From: Blastocystis sp. subtype 4
Taxonomy: Eukaryota
Length of the DNA stretch: 34,991 nucleotides
Reading direction: 5' to 3'
NCBI RefSeq assembly: GCF_000743755.1
Contig: NW_014569449.1
Span: forward strand, 1 to 34,991
In this document: one piece after another, positions 8,011 to 31,250 of the stretch
Layout: each line of letters starts with the position of its first letter
How positions within the stretch are numbered: the first letter of the stretch is position 1
Position numbers and translations under genes: made by a program
The notes under the pieces: model-generated
Seen by the model: the letters and a program-made list of their open reading frames with translations, nothing else
What the model was told of the DNA's origin: nothing
The model's database searches: none

Positions 8011-10639
8011 ATGTCTGTTCTGGGTATTGACTTCGGAAGTGACGCTTGTGTTATCGGACAGGCAGGAGGAATGGGAGCCGCTCCTGGACGTGGTGGTATT
8101 GATATTATTTTGAACGACAATTCAAAGAGACGAACACCGTAATTGTTTTCAATCCATTTGATATCGTAGTTCCATTGTTTCTTTCCAAGATCAAGAGCGT
8201 TTCATTGGTGAGCATGCTGAACCTCTGGTAAGTTGATTTGATTATGTTTGAGGGATAGCTCCGCTCGAATGCTAAGAATACTCCATACATGATGAAGAGT
8301 CTCCTCGGTAAGAATTTCCACGATCCCGAGGTTCAAGAAGAGATGAAGAAACTTCCTTTCAAGTTGGTTCCTTTGGAAGATGACCATATTGGTATTGAAG
8401 TGTACTATGACGGACAGCAGCGTACCTTTACTCCCGAGCAGATTACTGCCATTCTGTTGAATCATTGTGCTGTTCTTGCTCAGAAGGGAAGTAAAACTTC
8501 TGGAAAAGCTGAGGTTGTAATTTCGGTAAACTTTCATGAGCAGTAGTAATTGTATAGGTCCCTCCTTTCTGGAATGACACGCAACGACGTGCCATGTATC
8601 ATGCTTCACAGATTGCAGGAGTGAAGTGTCTTCGTCTGATTAACGAGAATGTAGCTAGTGCTCTGGACTATGGTATATTCCGTAATCTGAAGGGTGAGTT
8701 CAGTGATAAGCCTGTTCACGTTCTTTTTGTGGACATGGGTTACACAGCCACACATGCAACTGTAGCTGCTTTTACGACAGGCAAGGTTCAGATTCTATCT
8801 TGTGCCTATGATCGTCATTTGGGTTCTCGCTGCTGCGATGAGGCTATTGCCGATTTCATTGCAAAGGGTTTTATTGCCAAGTACAAGAGTGATCCTCGTT
8901 CTTCTCCTCGTTCAATGGCAAAGTTGATGGTAGCTGCTGAGAAGGTAAAGAAAACTCTTTCACCTGCTGGTGTGAACAAAACTCCTATTTATATTGAGTG
9001 TCTGCATGATGATCGGGATTATCAATCTGAGTTAACATTGCATGATTTCCAAGATATGTGTAGCGAGAAGAAACTTCCTGATCGACTTCAGGAAGTCGCT
9101 TTGCGAGCTCTGAAGGAGGCTGGATTAACCGTGAATGATAACTTTATCTGTGAGATTATTGGAGGAGGTATGCGTGTACCTCAGATGAAGTCTGCTTTAG
9201 CTCAGGCTCTTGGACGGAATCTTGATGGATTGTCGACAACGTTGAATATGGATGAGACTGTAGCTCGTGGTTGTGCTATGCAGTGTGCTATTCTTTCTCC
9301 CCGTATTCGTGTGAAGGCTTATGAGATTGTGGATGTGGTTCCATATTGGATTCGTTGCCACTCAGAAGTAAATGGTCAGACACAGGATCTGGAGTTATAT
9401 AAGAAGGGTGATACATTCCCATCTTATCGTCGTATCACGTATCACACAAAGGAGGATATTAAACTTCGTTTGGAGTATAGTCCCGAGAGTTTAGATATTA
9501 TGATGCCTGGTTCCCGTCCTCTCATTGCTGAGACTGTGGTGAAGGCAACGGAGAAAATGAAAACGGCGGAGGATCCAGTGGTATTTGTGAATTTCTGCTT
9601 TGATGCTCATGGCTTGTGTTATTTATATAATGCTTCTGTGAAGATTGCACTGCCTCCTGAACCTGAAAAGAAGGAGGAGTCAATGGAAGTGGAGGGAGAA
9701 GAGAAGAAGGAAGAGGCTCCTAAAGAATCTCCTAAAGAGGCTCCAAAAGAGGAGGAGAAGGGAGATGAAACTAAGAAGGAGACACCCAAGGAAGAGGCTA
9801 AGAAAGAAGAGGCTCCTAAGAAGCCTGAGGTAAAGTATTCGACAGACAGTCTTCAGTCACAAAGTGTTTTCACAGGTCTGAGTGTGGACCAGATTCGTGC
9901 AGCTGAACAAACAGAGAAGCAGATGCTTCAGAAAGATGCTGATATTCGTCTTCGGAATGAGGCAAAGAATGATCTGGAGGGATATGTATACAATATGCGT
10001 GATCGTGTGAACAGCATGTACAAAGCTTACATTGCTGAAGAGATACGACAATCCTTCCTGACGAAACTTGATGCTGCCGAGAGCTGGTTGTATGATGACG
10101 AAGGCTACAACGCCTCTCGTGATACCTTTGTGGCTCGTTTACAGGAGTTGAAGACGGTTGGAGATCCTGTGGTGAACCGTTATACCGAGAGTCAGAATCG
10201 TCCAGAAGCTGTTACACAGTTGTCGCAGCGTTTGGAGTCGTTGACTCGTCTGTTAGATACTCCGAATGAGAAGTATGATCACATCACTCCTGAAGAACGG
10301 AAACCTATACGTGATTTGATTGCTGAGAGCAAGGCATGGTTAGAAAAGATGCTCAGTGCACAAGCAGAACTGGCCCTAACAGAGGATCCTGTTTTGAAGT
10401 GTTCGGATTGTTCTGATCGTATCCGTAATGTGGATAATCTATACAACAAGGTAATGAGCAAGCCAAAGCCAAAGCCAAAGGAAGAAGAGAAGAAACCAGA
10501 GGAGAAGAAGAGTGAAGAGAAGAAGGAAGAAGATGAAGGAAAGAAACCAGAAGAGAAAGAGAAGTCTGGAGAAAAGGATAGTGGTAAGATGGAAGAGGAG
10601 GAGAAGCCTGAAGAGAACTCAAAGATGGAGGAGGAATAA
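8011..10639 (+). CDS. Hsp110/SSE-family chaperone (Hsp70 nucleotide-exchange factor), 3 introns near the 5' end
   Basis: MSVLGIDFG...RGGIDIILND, ASALDYGI, VLFVDMG, LSTTLNMDETVARGCAMQCAILSP, an acidic/Lys-rich loop, AKNDLEGYVYNMRD and ESWLYDDEG. Confidence 0.95.
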
Positions 10640-10689
10640 TTATATGTATTTGTTTACAGTGATTTCTCATGATTTGTTACAAACAATTG

Positions 10690-11085
10690 TTAATTGGCAT
10701 TACTACGCTTCTGCTTCTCATCTTCAATTTCACTACGTACTACTTTTGTTACTAGGGCATAATAATCTTCATGTACTGTTACATTCTTCATAACTCAAAT
10801 CAGAAGCAGTTTTTGCAATGACCCACTGAACTAACTGGTCAATTTTTCGTAGATCATTATGTTGCGATGTATGAAACTCAATGTGCTATAAATCATATCA
10901 AAACATCTCGATTACTATATCATTATCAGTACAACTCACAGTAACATCCTTTTTGTGCTCAGCATACTTTACATTGTAACGGAACTAAATACTAATCCAT
11001 ACAAGGAACCATCAACGATCTCAGGATTATGAAGGAATAATGTCATAGCAGCAATCTTAAACTCGACCCAATTTGTGTACTTCAT
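10690..11085 (-). CDS. SRP9: Signal recognition particle 9 kDa subunit, 3 introns
   Basis: Spliced protein MKYTNWVEFKIAAMTLFLHNPEIFRYNVKYAEHKKDVTVSCTDNDIHIEFHTSQHNDLRKIDQLVQWVIAKTASDLSYEELTKVVRSEIEDEKQKRSNAN* follows the SRP9 pattern WxEFxxAAxxLxxxxP..R...KY.....TD. TAA is followed 4 nt later by TGTTTGTA. It is not in the ORF track. Confidence 0.85.
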
Positions 11086-11532
11086 TCTAGGGAAATCAGG
11101 TTGCACAAATGATCTAAAACTAAGGAGAAAACATGAAGACAAGGAATACGGAAAACAAGTCTATTTCTGTATTCCAAAAGCATGATCTAATCTCTCCTTT
11201 TGATTATTGAAATCTATTCGTTTATTTTCCGATTGTAGTGATGAAAATATATTATAGCAAGTTAGCTCATAACAATGTCATTTAATAACCGTATATACGA
11301 TTGACTGTTCGTTTAGTCGGTGATATTACATCTGTTATTCACGATACAAATAATAACTAGGTCAGTTAATTGTTATTTTGAGTCTAGTTTCACATTTTAC
11401 AATTTTGCTTTGTTACTCGAGTTTGCCCTTGCTTCCTTGTGTCTATACTCACATTTCCGTTTGTTGCAATGTTAGAGGGCTACATTGAGACTAAAAAATC
11501 CATATAATGGGAGAATACTATAAGATGAGTCA

Positions 11533-11630
11533 TCCGATCAAATGATGAAACTCCATATGTTTAGTAGTTAAGCTGCCTAACATTTCATGATTATTATAGA
11601 ACAATGAAGGAAAGAGCGCCTGACTTCGGA
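11533..11630 (+). ncRNA. Candidate box C/D snoRNA, target uncertain
   Basis: TCCGA/TCGGA terminal stem, C box ATGATGA 11542-11548, D'-like CTAA 11577-11580, C'-like ATGATTA 11587-11593 and D box CTGA 11620-11623. Confidence 0.4.
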
Positions 11631-11654
11631 AACAAGATCATATTTATTTTTGAA

Positions 11655-12496
11655 ATGAAGTGTTTTCTTGTTATTATTTTCTGTTTCTATTTAGCTGCTT
11701 CAAAATACAGTTACACTGATAAATGTTATCGATTTGGAAAGGCAGTCGATTACAGGAGTTTGCTTTCAATCAGTTTATCACTATATAGAGGATACCTATT
11801 ATCAAGTTTATGTAAACAGGAAAGGAATTCCTCATAGCAGAGATAAGATCAATGTTGAGAGGTCATATTTGTATAATTACAGTATGTTTTCGTACTACTA
11901 TCAGTGAAATATATGAATGGAGTTAAGTTCTAGTTATGTTCTTTCTGACTGCAATGCAGTGGACGCAGGATATCAGTGTCTAAGTACATGTGATTCTGTT
12001 TGGTTCAAAATCGATAACAAAACCGAAGCCGATTATTATGTTAAGTATTGTGATCCAATCTTTCAAGTGAAGTATGGTGACATAACGTGGGATTTACTGA
12101 AGAGAGTAAAAAATAGGAAACATAATTGTACCGGTTCCATGGATCCTTTTGGTTTTATTATTCAACAGATTGGCAAAACAACTACTGAAATCATTGAGAT
12201 GAGTAAGAAATGAATTAATTTAATTTATCGACAGAAGGGAAAGTGGCTCTTGCTCCTGAGGGATACACAGAAGATAAGAAATGTGTATGGGAATGGGATG
12301 TTATTGGATTGTGGTCTTTAGGTAATTGATATGAAACATGAATTGATATCTAGTAACTGTGATCGTCATCTCTGTGATTATTGTAATCTTACTGATTGTA
12401 TTCATCATTGCCATTGTCTTGGTTCAGAAACATCGTTCAACAAAACGAAAACGCCTAGAGAACTCTTTGATTCATGGAAATGAACCTAATGTGTAA
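11655..12496 (+). CDS. Cys-rich type-I membrane protein of unknown family, copy 1
   Basis: Signal peptide MKCFLVIIFCFYLAAS, ectodomain YSYTDKCYRF..GIPHSRD..SVWFKIDNKTEA..CDPIFQ..KKCVWEWDVIGLWSL, a hydrophobic TM segment, and basic tail QKHRSTKRKRLENSLI. It has 4-5 introns of about 30 nt and a genomic TAA at 12494-12496. Confidence 0.85.
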
Positions 12497-12885
12497 TTTG
12501 TTTCTTTGAGCAAGTGACGTTCAGATTTGTGAGTGCTATCAGATCTGAATCCAGCATTATGATACCATATATATGTCTGACAAAGACACTCATGTAGATT
12601 CTTGACCCAATTCAAATTTCTTGAGTTGTGGACTCATGCAACACTCTATGGCCAAATATAAAGGGGATTCGGCTCTATACAGAAATGATCTCCTTTCGTT
12701 ATTCTAACTTGGATTAACAGAATGGTTCTAACAAAGATCTCCATATGTGGCGAGAGAACGCACTATTCTTGCAATCACAGAGATACAATACAATAACAGA
12801 TTCCCGCGGTCTTAATGACTGATGAATTCTATTAGAACTAATCGTCTGTGTCATGATAAGGTATGGTTACAAATCGTTTATTCGT

Positions 12886-13734
12886 ATGATGAAGGCAAGT
12901 TATTTTGTAATTCTTCTCTGCTGTTTCTGTTTAGCAGTTTCGGAGTACAGTTATACCGATAAATGTTATCGATTCAAAGGACCTGAAGAGAGTTTCTGTA
13001 CGTTCTTTTTTCTTTATGTAACTTGACAGTCAGACCATACTATCAATTCTATTTTAATATGCATGGAATACCTCATAGTAGAGACTATATCGTCTTTCAA
13101 AGCCTGGGAAGCTCTCGTATTATGTCATGTTCGTACTACTATCAGTAATAATAACTATTCTACATGATCTCTAGTTATGTTCTCTCTGATTGCAGTAAAG
13201 TTGATGCAGGATATACATGCAAGAGTACATGCGAATCAGTATGGTTCAAAATCGAGAACAAAACCGAAGCGAAAACTTTTGTAGAGAAGTGTGATCCCAT
13301 CTTTCAAAAGAAGTATGGTGACATAACGTGGGGTTTATTGAAAATAGTTAATTATAGGAAACATAATTGTAATATGACAATGGATCCCTTCTATATTATC
13401 AGACAGCAAATTGGCACAACAACTACAAGTACAATTGAGATGGGTACGAATTGAGTCCAGTTACTGAACAGTAGATGGAAAGGTTCCTATTGCACCTGAG
13501 GGATATGTAAAGGATAAGAAATGTGTATGGGAATGGGATGTTATTGGATTGTGGTCCTTAGGTAATTGATATGAAACGTGAATTGATACCTAGTAACTGT
13601 CATTATCGTTTCTGTGATTATTGTAATCTTACTGATTGTATTCATCATTGGTATCATCTTGGTTCAGAAACATCGTTCAACAAAACGAAAACGATTAGAG
13701 AATTGTTTGCTTCATAAACAGGAGTCTCATATTT
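12886..13734 (+). CDS. Cys-rich type-I membrane protein, copy 2 (stop predicted to be made by polyadenylation after T13734)
   Basis: Same exon structure and motifs as copy 1. The codon homologous to the copy-1 TAA is TCA, followed by TT-TGTTTCTT. The first genomic stop is at 13794-13796. Confidence 0.82.
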
Positions 13735-13889
13735 CATTTGTTTCTTTGAGTAAAATATACATGTTATTCATATTATTTGAATTGAAACAAAGATGATTTG
13801 TTTGTGTTCTAATCATTGTTAACATAGAATTCTAATAGACTAATGTTCCTGCGTCATCATATTCAAATAAGAATCATTACTATTTAACT

Positions 13890-14733
13890 ATGAAATCTCT
13901 TCTTTTTGTTATTGCTTGCTGTTTCTGTTTAGCAGTTTCTAAATACAGTTATACTGATAAGTGTTATCGATTTGGAGTAGCCATTGATAAAAGCCGTTTG
14001 GTTCAATTCGTTGGATAATTACATAGATGACTTCTATTATCAAATCTATGTTAATAAGAAGGGAATTCCTCATAGCAGAGATGAAATCATCGTGGAGAGG
14101 CCTTATGGTAGGAATTGCAGTATGTATTCTTATTATTATCAGTAATACTGTTAACTGATATTTACACATAGTTATGTTCTCTCTAATTGCAGTAAAGTTG
14201 AGACAGGATATAGATGTAAAAATACATGCGAATCAGTTTGGTTCAAAATCGATAACAAAACTGAAGCGAAACTCTATGCTGATAAATGTGATCCCATCTT
14301 TCAAAAGAAGTATGCTGATGTGACGTGAGACTTGTAGAGAACAATAACTGTTTAGGAAGCATCATTGTAATATGACTACGGATCCTTTCTATTATGTAAA
14401 GGAACAAATCGGCAGAACATCCACTGAAACAATTGAGATGGGTACGAATTGAATCTCAGTCACTAAAACATAGAGGGAAAAGTTCCTATCGTTCCCAATA
14501 GATTCACAAAGGATAAGAAATGTGTATGGGAATGGGATGTCATCGGATTATGGTCCTTAGGTACTTGAAATGAAATGAGTTTTAGTCTTTAGTAAGTGTG
14601 ATCGTCTTTTCTGTGATTATTGTAATTGCTCTCATTGTATTTCTCATTGGTATCATATTGGTTCAGAAACATCGTTCAACCAAACGAAAACGACTAGAGA
14701 ATTCCTTAATTCGTAATAATGAGAATAGCATTT
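13890..14733 (+). CDS. Cys-rich type-I membrane protein, copy 3 (stop predicted to be made by polyadenylation after T14733)
   Basis: Same architecture. It is intact if the 31-nt GT-AG segment 14325-14355 is spliced. TCA occupies the stop-homologous codon, followed by TT-TGTTTCTT. Confidence 0.78.
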
Positions 14734-14754
14734 CATTTGTTTCTTTAAAACAGA

Positions 14755-17285
14755 TTACAACTTGTTTAGTCTATCCAAAGTCTTCTTCATAATCTCAGAA
14801 CGCTGTGTTTCCCTAGAATCAAAACCCAATCCTCCTCTTCGATGGCCCACAGTACCTGGCAATGGAACAGACGAATCCTCGTCTTGATGCTTTTTTAACC
14901 AACCGTCTTTGGCTAATAGCATCTGACCAACAGAAGGACCAGGTGCTGCTGAAGGAATAACAGAAGGTGGTTCTATAAATCCTGGAACAGTACTCTCAGT
15001 GGTTGCAAGAACTGAAGTGTATGAAACTGGTTGAATTGCAGGCTTGTTCGGATTACTAATGGCTGTACTACCAACCTTTCTCCTTCGTTCTTCTGCTCTA
15101 TCCTTGTACTAATGATTATAGGATTCAATCATTTCTACATCCACCGATGGATCCTTATGATACTTTTCCCATTCATGGAGTTGTCTCTATGATCAATATC
15201 CAATCTATAGTTCACCCTATGGAGTCGAGACTCAGAAACATGCCTTTTGAATTGTGCTTCATCACGGAATTGTCGACCACAAATCTATCCTTATACTCGA
15301 TTCACAATGATACGAAACAGGCAGGTGCACCGTTTCTAGTATGACCAGAGATCCGTTCAATTTGAGCTAATGAAGGAATAAACACTTCTTCCTTCTTTTC
15401 CATTCGCTTCTGTAGTACCTTTGTCTTCACTTCCATCGTAATAGCTTGTCCAGGACGCAATTGTTCACCTTCCACTTGAACAGATGATCGTTCCGTTTGA
15501 GGTTCTTCAGGTTGAGGAGGTAGAAGTTTGTCCAATGGAGTCGTGAATTTGATTTCCAGTTTGGCTGGAGTTGGTGTTGATTGGACTGTTGTAGGCGTAA
15601 ACTGGAAATTCGTTGGGGTAGAGATCAGAGGCACTTTTTCCTCCTTCACAGGTTCAGGTGAATGCTTTGGTGGAATATGATAAGGTTTGGAAGGAGGAAA
15701 GGGGATGAATGGTATTAACTGATCATCTTTTCGTGTGTAGTAAGTACCAGTAATCGAATCAAGGTACTACAAGTGACACACTCTGTAGAGTCCTACCATC
15801 TGCTGAATGGAACAGAAGTAAAACTGTGAATTAGCTTCATACCAATATCCTGAAGCAGGGTCCAATGAATAACTATCTCATATTTGTTAAGAAATCATAC
15901 CTCTCTTGTTGAAATGCTCGAGGAAATGGCCGTCCATCAGGAAGCTTCTCGTTAACTGGAGTCAATACTTCTTTCTGTAAAGGGAGGCGAGCTTGACTGG
16001 TTTTATCAAGAAGCGTTTGCTGAATGGCTTGAGACTCTTGATATGAAGGAAGTAAAATCGTTTGATAAGGGAGATACGAAGGGAATGAGTAGGTAGGCAT
16101 GTAATAGGAAACAGGCTGAGGTACTGATGACATGGTGGGTTGTGGATGGATCATTGAATGTTGAACCTCTCTAAAATAAGACTATGATAATATGAGTACC
16201 GAATACAATATGGATTTGCATATCCAATGGTAACCTGATAACCATGAACACTGATATACCCATGCATGTTCACAATTTGCATAGCTCCTTCGATAGTCTC
16301 AAATTCAACGACACCATATCCACGGGAGAGTTTACTATAACTATCATGAAAAATATAGGCTGATTTGGTTGGAGCACAGTTATTAAACGACATCATAATC
16401 TAGATCTGATTGGAGGTTAACGTACTCACATCTGTCTCTGTTGCTGACAAGCACAGACACTTAATAAGTACAAAAACAGTGGGGGTTTTGGAGAATTCAA
16501 ATAAGGCGCGATCTATATCGAGTGATTGTTCATTTCGAGTATTTTTGCATCCTTTACATTCCGAATGTCGATATGAATTAATTCCAAAACACTATATGAC
16601 AATGGATGTCTGAAAATACTCGTTCACACACCCAATCATTTTTTCGATCCTGTCTTTGCTCTTTAGATGCATATTCAATGGTACATGACTGACCAAACAG
16701 AACTAAAGCTGGCCCAGTGCCGAATCCAGAACTCGATGCTATTGATCACCAGAATAACGCATAGGAAAACGATATTTCGTAATCACATTGGATGCATCCA
16801 CAATCGAAGGAAACGAACAGAAGGCATATCCGCGATTTCTTCCCTTCTCCTACAGTTAAGGACCTACACAATGTCTACTTTATCAAATACCATCCGAACC
16901 GTCTTAATGCGATCTTCCCTTAATGCTTCCCAAATCTACACTTAAAACAGAAACAATTATATACCATCGCCTCTGTAACTTCGTAGTTGAGATTTCGTAG
17001 ATAGAGAACGTTCGTTGGATTCTTTGGTTGTACCTTTCCTATTCGATCTCGATCTACTGATGATCTGTTATCATTCCACTTGGAATCCGTAGTTTCAACA
17101 ATATTTGTCGCTGGAACGGAGAAATCACGACTTCGTTCTCGATAATCACTTCTACTTATTATGGTCCACCATGGCAAATGCCTTGAGTAATCTGAAGACC
17201 GAGAATCACCATGACGAGAATCATGTCTATCTCTTGAGTCACGACTTCTGCTGTGATGGTGTCGATCCTCACCATGACGGCCCAT
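14755..17285 (-). CDS. RBM5/RBM10/SUA-like splicing regulator (RS/RD N-terminus, RRMs, OCRE, G-patch), multi-exon
   Basis: RRM motifs TNVLYLRNL and SRGYGVVEF, an aromatic OCRE-like segment GYWYEANSQFYF...YLDSITGTYY, YKDRAEERRRKVG, and G-patch SVGQMLLAKDGW...RRGGLGF. TAA is at 14757-14755. Confidence 0.8.
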
Positions 17286-29300: not shown

Positions 29301-31234
29301 TGATCCAGACTTCTTTGCAGGTGAAGTCTATAATATGAAGGAACTTCTATTGGATGAAGTTCGATGTGATCAACCTGTTCTGTTGTGTAGCATGCCAGGT
29401 TATGATGCTAGCAAACGAGTTGAGCAGTTATACGTGGAATTACAGTCTCCATTAGAAACAGTTGCTATGGGTAACACTGAATCCTTTGTGGAAGCAGAAC
29501 GCCTTATTATGGCTGCAGCTGCTCGAGGATCTGCTGTGCTTCTTCGCAATGTTCATCTTTGTCCTGAATGGCTTTCTACTCTGGAGAAGATGCTCTTTTC
29601 GCTACGTCCTCATGCTTCATTCAGACTACTAATGACCAGTGAGATTAATCCCAAACTTCCACCTTCCCTCTTACGATTGTGTTACACCCTTGTCTTTGAG
29701 ACACCTACGGGTATTCGTGCTTCGTTAAAGCACTCTCTGAATAGTGTACCTGAAGAGGTAATGAATGCAAAACCAGTAGAACGTTGTCGTGTCTACTTCC
29801 TTCTCCTCTGGCTTCATGCTGTGGTGGAGGAACGTCTTCGATATGTGCCTGTTGGTTGGACGAAGGGATATGAGTTCAGTGAGACGGATCTGAAGTGTTC
29901 ATTGATGGTACTGGATCGTTGGATTGCTACAGCTAGTCGAGGACTCTCTCATATGGATCCAGCAGCTTTGAATTGGGAAGCGATTCAATCTTTACTTGGT
30001 CAGTCTCTGTACGGAGGTCGTATTGATAGTCCATTTGATGACAAGCTTCTTCAATCACTTGTTCGTCGTTTCTTCGTGCGTAATGTGTTCGATGGTCGAT
30101 TCCCGTTGGTTGAGAATGTGAATGCTGACGGAGTACGTGAAGTATTACTCTATGCTCCTGAAGGTACCACGAAGCAGGATTTTGAGACATGGGTAAACTC
30201 TCTTCCTGTCTATAATTCACCACTCTGGTTAGGATTACCTGCTACAGCTGAAGGTCGATTGTTATCAACTCAAGGGAGCTATATCTTACGTAGTCTCCTC
30301 CTGCTTCAAGACAGTGTGGATGTGGAGAAGGAGCTTCATGTCGATGCAGTTCCTTCTGAAGTTACAACCGCACCCTATTGGATGACAACTCTGGCTACTT
30401 CAGCAGAGAACTGGTTGCAGATGTTGCTTGTGGACATCCATCCGTTCTCCCTTACTGAGGAACAGTTGAAGAATCCTCTGAATCGATATCTGAATCGAGA
30501 AATCCAACTCCTTTGTCAACTTCAACGTCGTGTGGTTGATGATTTGAAAGGTGTTCTGGGTGTGTGTACAGGCAATATGAAGAGTACTCATCAGATTCGT
30601 CGATTGATGCGAGAACTGAGTGAAGATCAGATTCCAGAGGTCTGGTCAGGTTACTATGTCACTCCTCCTTCACAAAGTAGGGTTGGGAATATTGGATTGA
30701 TGTGTAGTTTGTTCTTTGTGGGTCCAGGATTTCATTACTCGTTGTCAACACTTTGCTTCACTATCAACTCTCTCATTACAACAGATTCGAGTTGAAGGAA
30801 TCTGGCTAGGAGGACTTATGCAGCCTGAAGCGTGTGTGACAGCTATGCGTCAATTAGTAGCACAGCAGAATACATGGCCATTAGATAAGGTGCGTTTAAC
30901 ACTTCGTCCGTTGACAACGGAACAGTATGAAGGAAGAGAAGCCTTGTTGGCAGAGAAGCAGAACTGTTTCCTGATTCATGGATTGATGTTGGAAGGTGCT
31001 GAATGGAGCAATAACGTACTGCAGCCATCAGAAGAGATTCGCTTCCCATTAGATGAAGTTGTATTTGAGTGGTCTTGTCTAGAGCATACAGATAGTGAGA
31101 TGAGCGTACCGATGTACTTGAATGATACGCGTTCAGATCTTTTATGTGTGGTAGAGATGCGATTTACTGAGACTCTTCCCAAAGAGATGTGGAGTGAAAG
31201 AGCGGTGGCTTTGATTGCTTGGAGACAAGCATAA
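17366..31234 (+). CDS. DYNC1H1: Cytoplasmic dynein-1 heavy chain
   Basis: Four P-loops GPAGTGKT, GPSGSGKS, GPPGSGKT and GESGAGKT, a stalk coiled coil, and tail motif VAGAVIWSRQI. Track ORFs 17866-19164, 19201-30795 and 30716-31234 are joined by introns 19142-19171 and 30677-30707. Several small 5' exons start from ATG 17366 (start less certain). Confidence 0.96.
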
Positions 31235-31242
31235 TGGATGAA

Positions 31243-31250
31243 TGTTTGTT
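31243..31250 (+). terminator. TGTTTGTT polyadenylation element of dynein heavy chain
   Basis: Perfect motif 8 nt after the TAA. Confidence 0.8.

Follow-up and report, generated by a model that had tools for sequence, protein, structure and literature searches.

Tandem Blastocystis paralogs with TAA or TCA at the stop position probably share one kind of polyadenylation-made stop

Why would three adjacent copies of a gene disagree about their stop codon? In a 34,991-nt stretch of DNA from Blastocystis sp. subtype 4 (contig NW_014569449.1; this whole stretch is "the window"), three tandem six-exon paralogs have TAA, TCA, and TCA where their proteins are expected to end. The preliminary description of the locus took this for a switch, from a genomic stop in copy 1 to a UAA made by polyadenylation in copies 2 and 3. 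We propose that all three copies end in the same way: very likely, each is cut after the T that lies 4 nt before a GU-rich element, and the tail supplies AA. In RNA, copy 1 is polyadenylated within its TAA.

The mutual alignment of the three copies spans about 850 nt. Their features are as follows.

11655..12496, + strand: coding sequence of copy 1 (6 exons, 228 amino acids; all 5 introns are skipped in an RNA contig)
11758–11788, 11904–11933, 12087–12116, 12203–12234, and 12322–12353, + strand: introns of copy 1
12886..13734, + strand: coding sequence of copy 2 (ATG at 12886 or 12889; about 231 amino acids up to the T of TCA)
12998–13029, 13145–13174, 13328–13357, 13444–13474 (or –13471, in the same frame), and 13562–13593, + strand: introns of copy 2 (2 of 5 supported by RNA, the others by homology)
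13890..14733, + strand: coding sequence of copy 3 (229 amino acids up to the T of TCA; 4 of 5 introns supported by RNA)
13996–14026, 14142–14171, 14325–14355, 14442–14473, and 14561–14592, + strand: introns of copy 3
12499..12506, + strand: element TGTTTCTT of copy 1 (sequence and RNA)
13739..13746, + strand: element TGTTTCTT of copy 2, with a predicted cut after T13734
14738..14745, + strand: element TGTTTCTT of copy 3, with a predicted cut after T14733
13794–13796, + strand: first genomic in-frame stop of copy 2 (TGA), 20 codons past the TCA
14790–14792, + strand: first genomic in-frame stop of copy 3, 19 codons past the TCA, inside the convergent coding sequence and with no element at +5

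The triplets at the stop position are TAA at 12494 (copy 1), TCA at 13734 (copy 2), and TCA at 14733 (copy 3). Each is followed by TT and then by TGTTTCTT, which is the element with one mismatch. This layout is observed directly. The T opens a codon in each spliced model (684, 693, and 687 coding nucleotides lie ahead of it in copies 1, 2, and 3), and it is 4 nt from the element in 3 of 3 copies; the triplets, frame, and spacing given in the preliminary description are exact at all three positions. The layout of all three copies thus matches the published sites described below, where the element may carry up to two substitutions and the in-frame T precedes it by 4 nt. At the end expected from homologs, a genomic stop is absent from copies 2 and 3 (TCA) and present in copy 1 (TAA).

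By chance, a fixed place would carry an element with no more than one mismatch about 0.001 of the time (81 of about 70,000 positions); within the window, 8 of 3563 stop triplets are followed by one at +5. Because the three copies are homologous, their T-element layouts are one observation, not three. A metagenome scan gave five loci on three contigs, with 3' ends of the copies that are letter-identical to ours in L001 (copy 3), L002 (copy 2), and L005 (all three), which rules out assembly error behind the three ends. (L005 differs from the window at 10 places only, near the end of L005, at 15546–15580.) An Rfam search of 10600–15000 gave no matches.

RNA evidence comes from one run (X1) that is not recorded as RNA. 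Five of its contigs matched the locus, and these are spliced and poly(A)-tailed, which shows that the run is RNA. They skip all five introns in copy 1, two of five in copy 2, and four of five in copy 3. Behind 12496, right at the TAA, the contig of copy 1 (depth 227) has 21 loose A, and the mRNA that it represents has no 3' UTR. Both splicing and poly(A) at the copy 1 stop are therefore observed directly, the latter in one assembled contig from one run. Cuts after 12494, 12495, or 12496 would be indistinguishable because the genome has A at 12495–12496. From the 4-nt rule, we infer a cut after 12494; the exact cut was likewise taken from the spacing in the available text of PMC4159000.

Two other origins for this end were ruled out. 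Internal oligo-dT priming at 12496 would need A-rich DNA downstream, and the DNA there is T-rich. Splicing of a 32-nt GT..AG stretch (12493–12524) would remove the copy 1 stop, but the contig ends in poly(A) without a joint.

Since the copy 1 tail starts at the TAA upstream of the element, TGTTTCTT marks a real poly(A) site. The preliminary description had suggested that this string is a functional variant of the element. It does work, with poly(A) behind 12496 in copy 1, but it is not new, as it falls within the published limit of two substitutions. According to the available text of Klimes et al. 2014 (PMC4159000), Blastocystis nuclear genes have 372 created stops, about 90 converted stops, and 35 tail-replaced stops; the element is found at 4 nt, with at most two substitutions, in 2333 of 2419 sites; and cleavage 4 nt before the element is hypothesized to occur via a short CstF-64. 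Copy 1 fits the tail-replaced TAA class of 35 sites: poly(A) begins within the TAA, and the element at 12499 follows the T of this codon at the 4-nt spacing. The proposed switch between two stop mechanisms is thus not what separates copy 1 from its neighbors.

The contigs also showed other ends. In the copy 1 contig, 19 loose T precede 11643. They could mark the poly(A) end of an antisense transcript, or the T-rich stretch there could have given an oligo-dT artefact. The copy 2 contig begins 253 nt before the ATG (12633–12885, + strand), is unspliced there, crosses upstream ATGs, and has no Rfam match in this part. It could represent a long leader or a separate transcript; the copy 1 contig begins 12 nt before its ATG. 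Another contig (depth 45.8) matches only 11682–11719 and 11989–12011 and has other letters elsewhere, so it probably comes from another expressed paralog at a different place in the genome.

For copies 2 and 3, contig cover excludes 13305–13812 and 14575–14701, so their stops are predictions. (Near-identical stretches between the copies probably disrupt the assembly at these 3' ends.) Judging from the sequence, a poly(A)-made UAA is the likely stop of both. The 11 nt after the triplet (spacer and element) are identical at 11 of 11 positions in all three pairs of copies, while the last five codons before it have 53% identity. In the 45 nt beyond the element, identity is 22–29%, and for copy 2 versus copy 3, 1229 of 2000 shuffles score as well. 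The introns keep 53–94% identity. Because identity beyond the element is near random while the introns keep this much, coding sequence has not been conserved in the read-through tails.

These comparisons bear on an alternative in which copies 2 and 3 have lost their stops and are translated to the genomic ones. The proteins would gain extensions of 20 and 19 residues, and copy 3 would overlap its neighbor. The frames are indeed open to 13796 and 14792, and no RNA contradicts this directly, as both ends lie outside the contig cover. But beyond the element the two extensions show no relationship (29% identity), the genomic stop of copy 3 has no element at +5, and the identical element cuts copy 1 in RNA. 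We consider this explanation very improbable.

Instead, we propose that the pre-mRNA of each copy is cut after the T, 4 nt upstream of the GU-rich element, and that the poly(A) tail supplies AA, so that UAA would be read in all three mRNAs. The two genomic bases after the T would be discarded or replaced, with no effect on the end of the mRNA. As part of the spacer, they could drift freely (here to AA, CA, and CA, and in homologs to other sense triplets), and the TAA of copy 1 would be just one possible state. Selection would keep the T, the spacing, and the element, and it may also keep a terminal Val or Ile. The preliminary description had held that positions 2 and 3 of the stop are free to mutate. 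They do look free across the family, given the triplets, the comparison beyond the element, and the ends of the homologs described below, but their neutrality is something we infer. Neutral variation behind a common cut site describes the triplets better than a "switch" does.

The end of copy 3 faces a convergent gene.

14755..17285, − strand: convergent RBM5/10-like gene (Pfam: two RRM matches, and OCRE and C2H2 matches)
14745..14752, − strand: element TGTTTTAA (three mismatches), 4 nt behind the T in the stop of the convergent gene

We presume that this gene is RBM5/10-like from the order of its domains; several of the Pfam matches are below the cut-off as exon pieces. Read genomically, copy 3 runs to 14792 and overlaps the convergent coding sequence by 38 nt, as had been described, and this matches the convergent stop at 14757–14755. 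A cut at 14733 would remove the overlap. The TAA at 14757–14755 is also where the convergent gene's poly(A) starts (poly(T) before 14755, contig depth 201). Poly(A) thus begins within a genomic TAA, as in the tail-replaced class, and the 4-nt spacing is kept with an element that has three mismatches. The predicted site of copy 3 and the site of the convergent gene are 23 nt apart. We also noticed that their elements lie back to back (14733–14757), with base 14745 common to both.

Copy 2 has a second candidate site, which the preliminary description had missed.

13794..13806, + strand: TGA (13794–13796) and one-mismatch element TGTTTGTG (13799–13806), a candidate second in-frame site of copy 2

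TGTTTGTG is 4 nt after T13794, with a TT spacer as at the proximal site. It could serve as a second site or as a backup, or be there by chance. In one alternative, copy 2 is cut at both in-frame positions, which are 60 nt apart, or mostly at the distal one. The protein would have family length if the cut followed T13734, and a cut after T13794 would turn TGA into UAA and add 20 mostly hydrophobic residues. We think this alternative unlikely. An element would be expected at the first genomic stop by chance with a probability of 0.001–0.002 (about once in 500–1000), and both the conversion of TGA or TAG to UAA (about 90 cases) and genes with two sites are in the available text of PMC4159000. However, the proximal element and its flanks match those of copy 1, where the site is used; the extension of copy 2 has no homology to that of copy 3; nine homologs end at the short position; and the stretch is AT-rich and was noticed post hoc. 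A tentative extension of this idea, which we would not expect to hold, is that the choice of tail site toggles copy 2 between a terminal Ile and a 20-residue hydrophobic extension, and that the family, with TAA, TCA, Tyr, Trp, and Leu behind a fixed Val or Ile, is a natural experiment in which stops dissolve and re-form neutrally.

A profile search with the family gave 57 matches, mostly exon-sized fragments; we set aside P0036 and P0062, which look like unrelated Cys-rich repeats. All of the relatives' names that we saw are Blastocystis hypothetical proteins (ST3 strains DL and NMH, and ST4 strain BT1). Residues 2–213 of copy 3 are identical to the annotated protein P0106 from Blastocystis sp. 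BT1, which belongs to ST4 according to the available text of PMC12129017. This identity, introns of 30–32 nt, and a GC content of 40.3% place the locus in a human-associated Blastocystis subtype. P0106 ends 16 residues before the predicted end of copy 3, so it backs neither ending. (P0007, P0011, and P0116 appear to be mosaics of copies 1, 2, and 3, which could reflect gene conversion in other strains or misassembly.)

The tail motif is found in 15 of 147 stored proteins. Nine of the 15 end in Val, within two residues of one column, which is where copies 2 and 3 read TCA; two partial proteins stop 1–3 residues short of this column; and four read through. All four of the latter have Val followed by a residue with a possible T-initial codon (Leu, Trp, Tyr, and Tyr). 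When these were back-translated at +5, a perfect element was possible in two and an element with one mismatch in the other two, compared to 0 and 14 of 4527 control windows. The frames of the read-through homologs thus fit T-NNNN-TGTTTGTT, as back-translations rather than as DNA, from about five independent lineages, and with the end point of P0109 chosen after viewing the alignment. Furthermore, the genomic frame P0146 continues past the ends of the annotated ST3 proteins P0070 and P0071. These two have a Met start and are flagged as partial, which we read as the absence of an encoded stop. Counting against poly(A)-made ends, two BT1 models (P0109 and P0125) are listed as complete in the annotation while carrying 9 and 30 residues of read-through. 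We suspect annotation run-on because the two tails differ in length.

Why has the position of the stop been held? In the proteins of copies 1–3, the N-terminus is hydrophobic and the middle is rich in Cys; each also has a single strongly hydrophobic segment, and its tail is about 23 residues long. We predict that they are single-pass membrane proteins. The terminal Val or Ile may be the reason, by analogy to proTGF-alpha, whose terminal Val helps its export from the ER according to the available text of PMC4907727. None of six full-length family members had a Pfam match above the cut-off, a sequence search of PDB gave a single match (E = 0.48, on the membrane helix), and an Atlas search with an 89-amino-acid piece gave no usable match. 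The predicted model (pLDDT 83) has a beta-rich ectodomain that resembles APCDD1 (Z = 8.2, rmsd 4.7 over 131 residues) and VtrC of VtrC/ToxS (Z = 7.2, rmsd 4.8 over 109 residues), with 8–11% identity across the two. The best Foldseek E-value for the ectodomain model was 0.027, and Z scores of 7.2–8.2 may reflect just a common barrel arrangement. The modeled resemblance to bile- and lipid-binding barrels is of interest in a gut organism, though as a lead only. Among the titles searched, which took in few subscription papers, none concerned this fold in Blastocystis, and a literature search of the same scope found no description of this membrane-protein family.

Could the three copies still record one transition, with an ancestral TAA that copy 1 kept and that turned into TCA a single time, before copies 2 and 3 diverged? 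This is plausible, though we lean against it. TAA is one step from TCA and also from the Tyr codon of the sister paralog P0109, which mildly favors loss; the more distant homologs P0068 and P0110 are annotated as complete at the stop position; and the AU test does not reject a clade of copies 2 and 3 (p-AU 0.204). In the best tree, however, copy 1 groups with copy 3 (63/59, unsupported), and p-AU is 0.204 and 0.374 for the other two pairings, so no pairing is rejected. Informative sites favor copies 1 and 3 in exon 2, copies 2 and 3 in exon 3, and copies 1 and 2 in exon 6, a disagreement such as gene conversion would give. Nor is reading through confined to the copies. They form one clade (91/89) with an open fork, whose sister is a read-through paralog and whose next relative is annotated as complete. 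At least three changes are needed among the eight labeled rows, one for each stop-bearing row, and both states (genomic stop and sense triplet) are scattered through the family. (State labels for homologs come from annotation flags and read-through frames. The labeled tree leaves out the near-duplicates P0125, P0070, P0107, and P0117 and the fragments P0114 and P0074, all of which were in an earlier tree; P0108 and P0122 are in the tree without a state label.) The preliminary description had read the triplet as a single recorded transition, which these changes and the unrejected pairings do not support. It had also suggested that a phylogeny of the paralogs across subtypes would polarize gain versus loss; with no pairing rejected, our tree leaves the direction unpolarized.

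We also noticed related layouts elsewhere in the window. TGTTTCTT is found shortly behind two other apparent gene ends, at 2623 (− strand) and 7823 (+ strand), which suggests that it is a common variant here; from their translations, we take these genes to be LSm-like and bromodomain-like, respectively. An Hsp70-family open reading frame (628–646, − strand) has a perfect TGTTTGTT in its last codons and an in-frame TA 4 nt upstream, so a poly(A)-made stop four codons before its genomic stop is probable from the sequence. And the stop of a dynein heavy chain gene adjoins the ATG of a Mak10-like open reading frame (31232–31250, + strand), with the perfect element of the dynein gene (at 31243) inside the first codons of that frame.

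If our proposal is correct, then it fixes the true C-termini of two membrane-family proteins and removes a false gene overlap. The locus would also provide a compact set of genes on which to test the published proposal that relaxed selection makes stops disappear. We predict that bases 2 and 3 evolve neutrally wherever a T precedes the element by 4 nt, even if they spell TAA. If so, then counts of genes "with an encoded stop" overstate the number of genes that use one.

How does this locus compare to what is known? The mechanism, elements with one mismatch, and orthologs with different triplets were all published in 2014, and there is no new mechanism here. In a literature search that took in few subscription papers, we found no report of such a set of paralogs or of the string TGTTTCTT, and the available text of PMC11529991 has nothing specific to these sites. 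The locus shares with the sites of Klimes et al. 2014 the 4-nt spacing between a T and a TGTTTGTT-type element, and copy 1 belongs with their tail-replaced class. The legend of Fig 2 in that paper (PMC4159000) describes orthologs that differ at the stop position, TCG in ST1 and TTT in ST7; unlike those cases, both states are found here in adjacent paralogs of one family. In the available text of Gentekaki et al. 2017 (PMC5608401), 26% of ST1 genes are reported to have such stops, and overlaps in ST4 are resolved by a predicted poly(A)-made stop. A 37-bp overlap between the 3' ends of convergent ST4 models was removed in this way, much like the 38 nt here, but those are other genes, and here the poly(A) site of the convergent partner is visible in RNA. 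Finally, the available text of PMC12129017 (Genome Res 2025) argues that if the element suffices for cleavage, then encoded stops are lost through relaxed selection. This is the same scenario that the preliminary description had drawn from the locus, and to it we add a codon-level comparison within one family.
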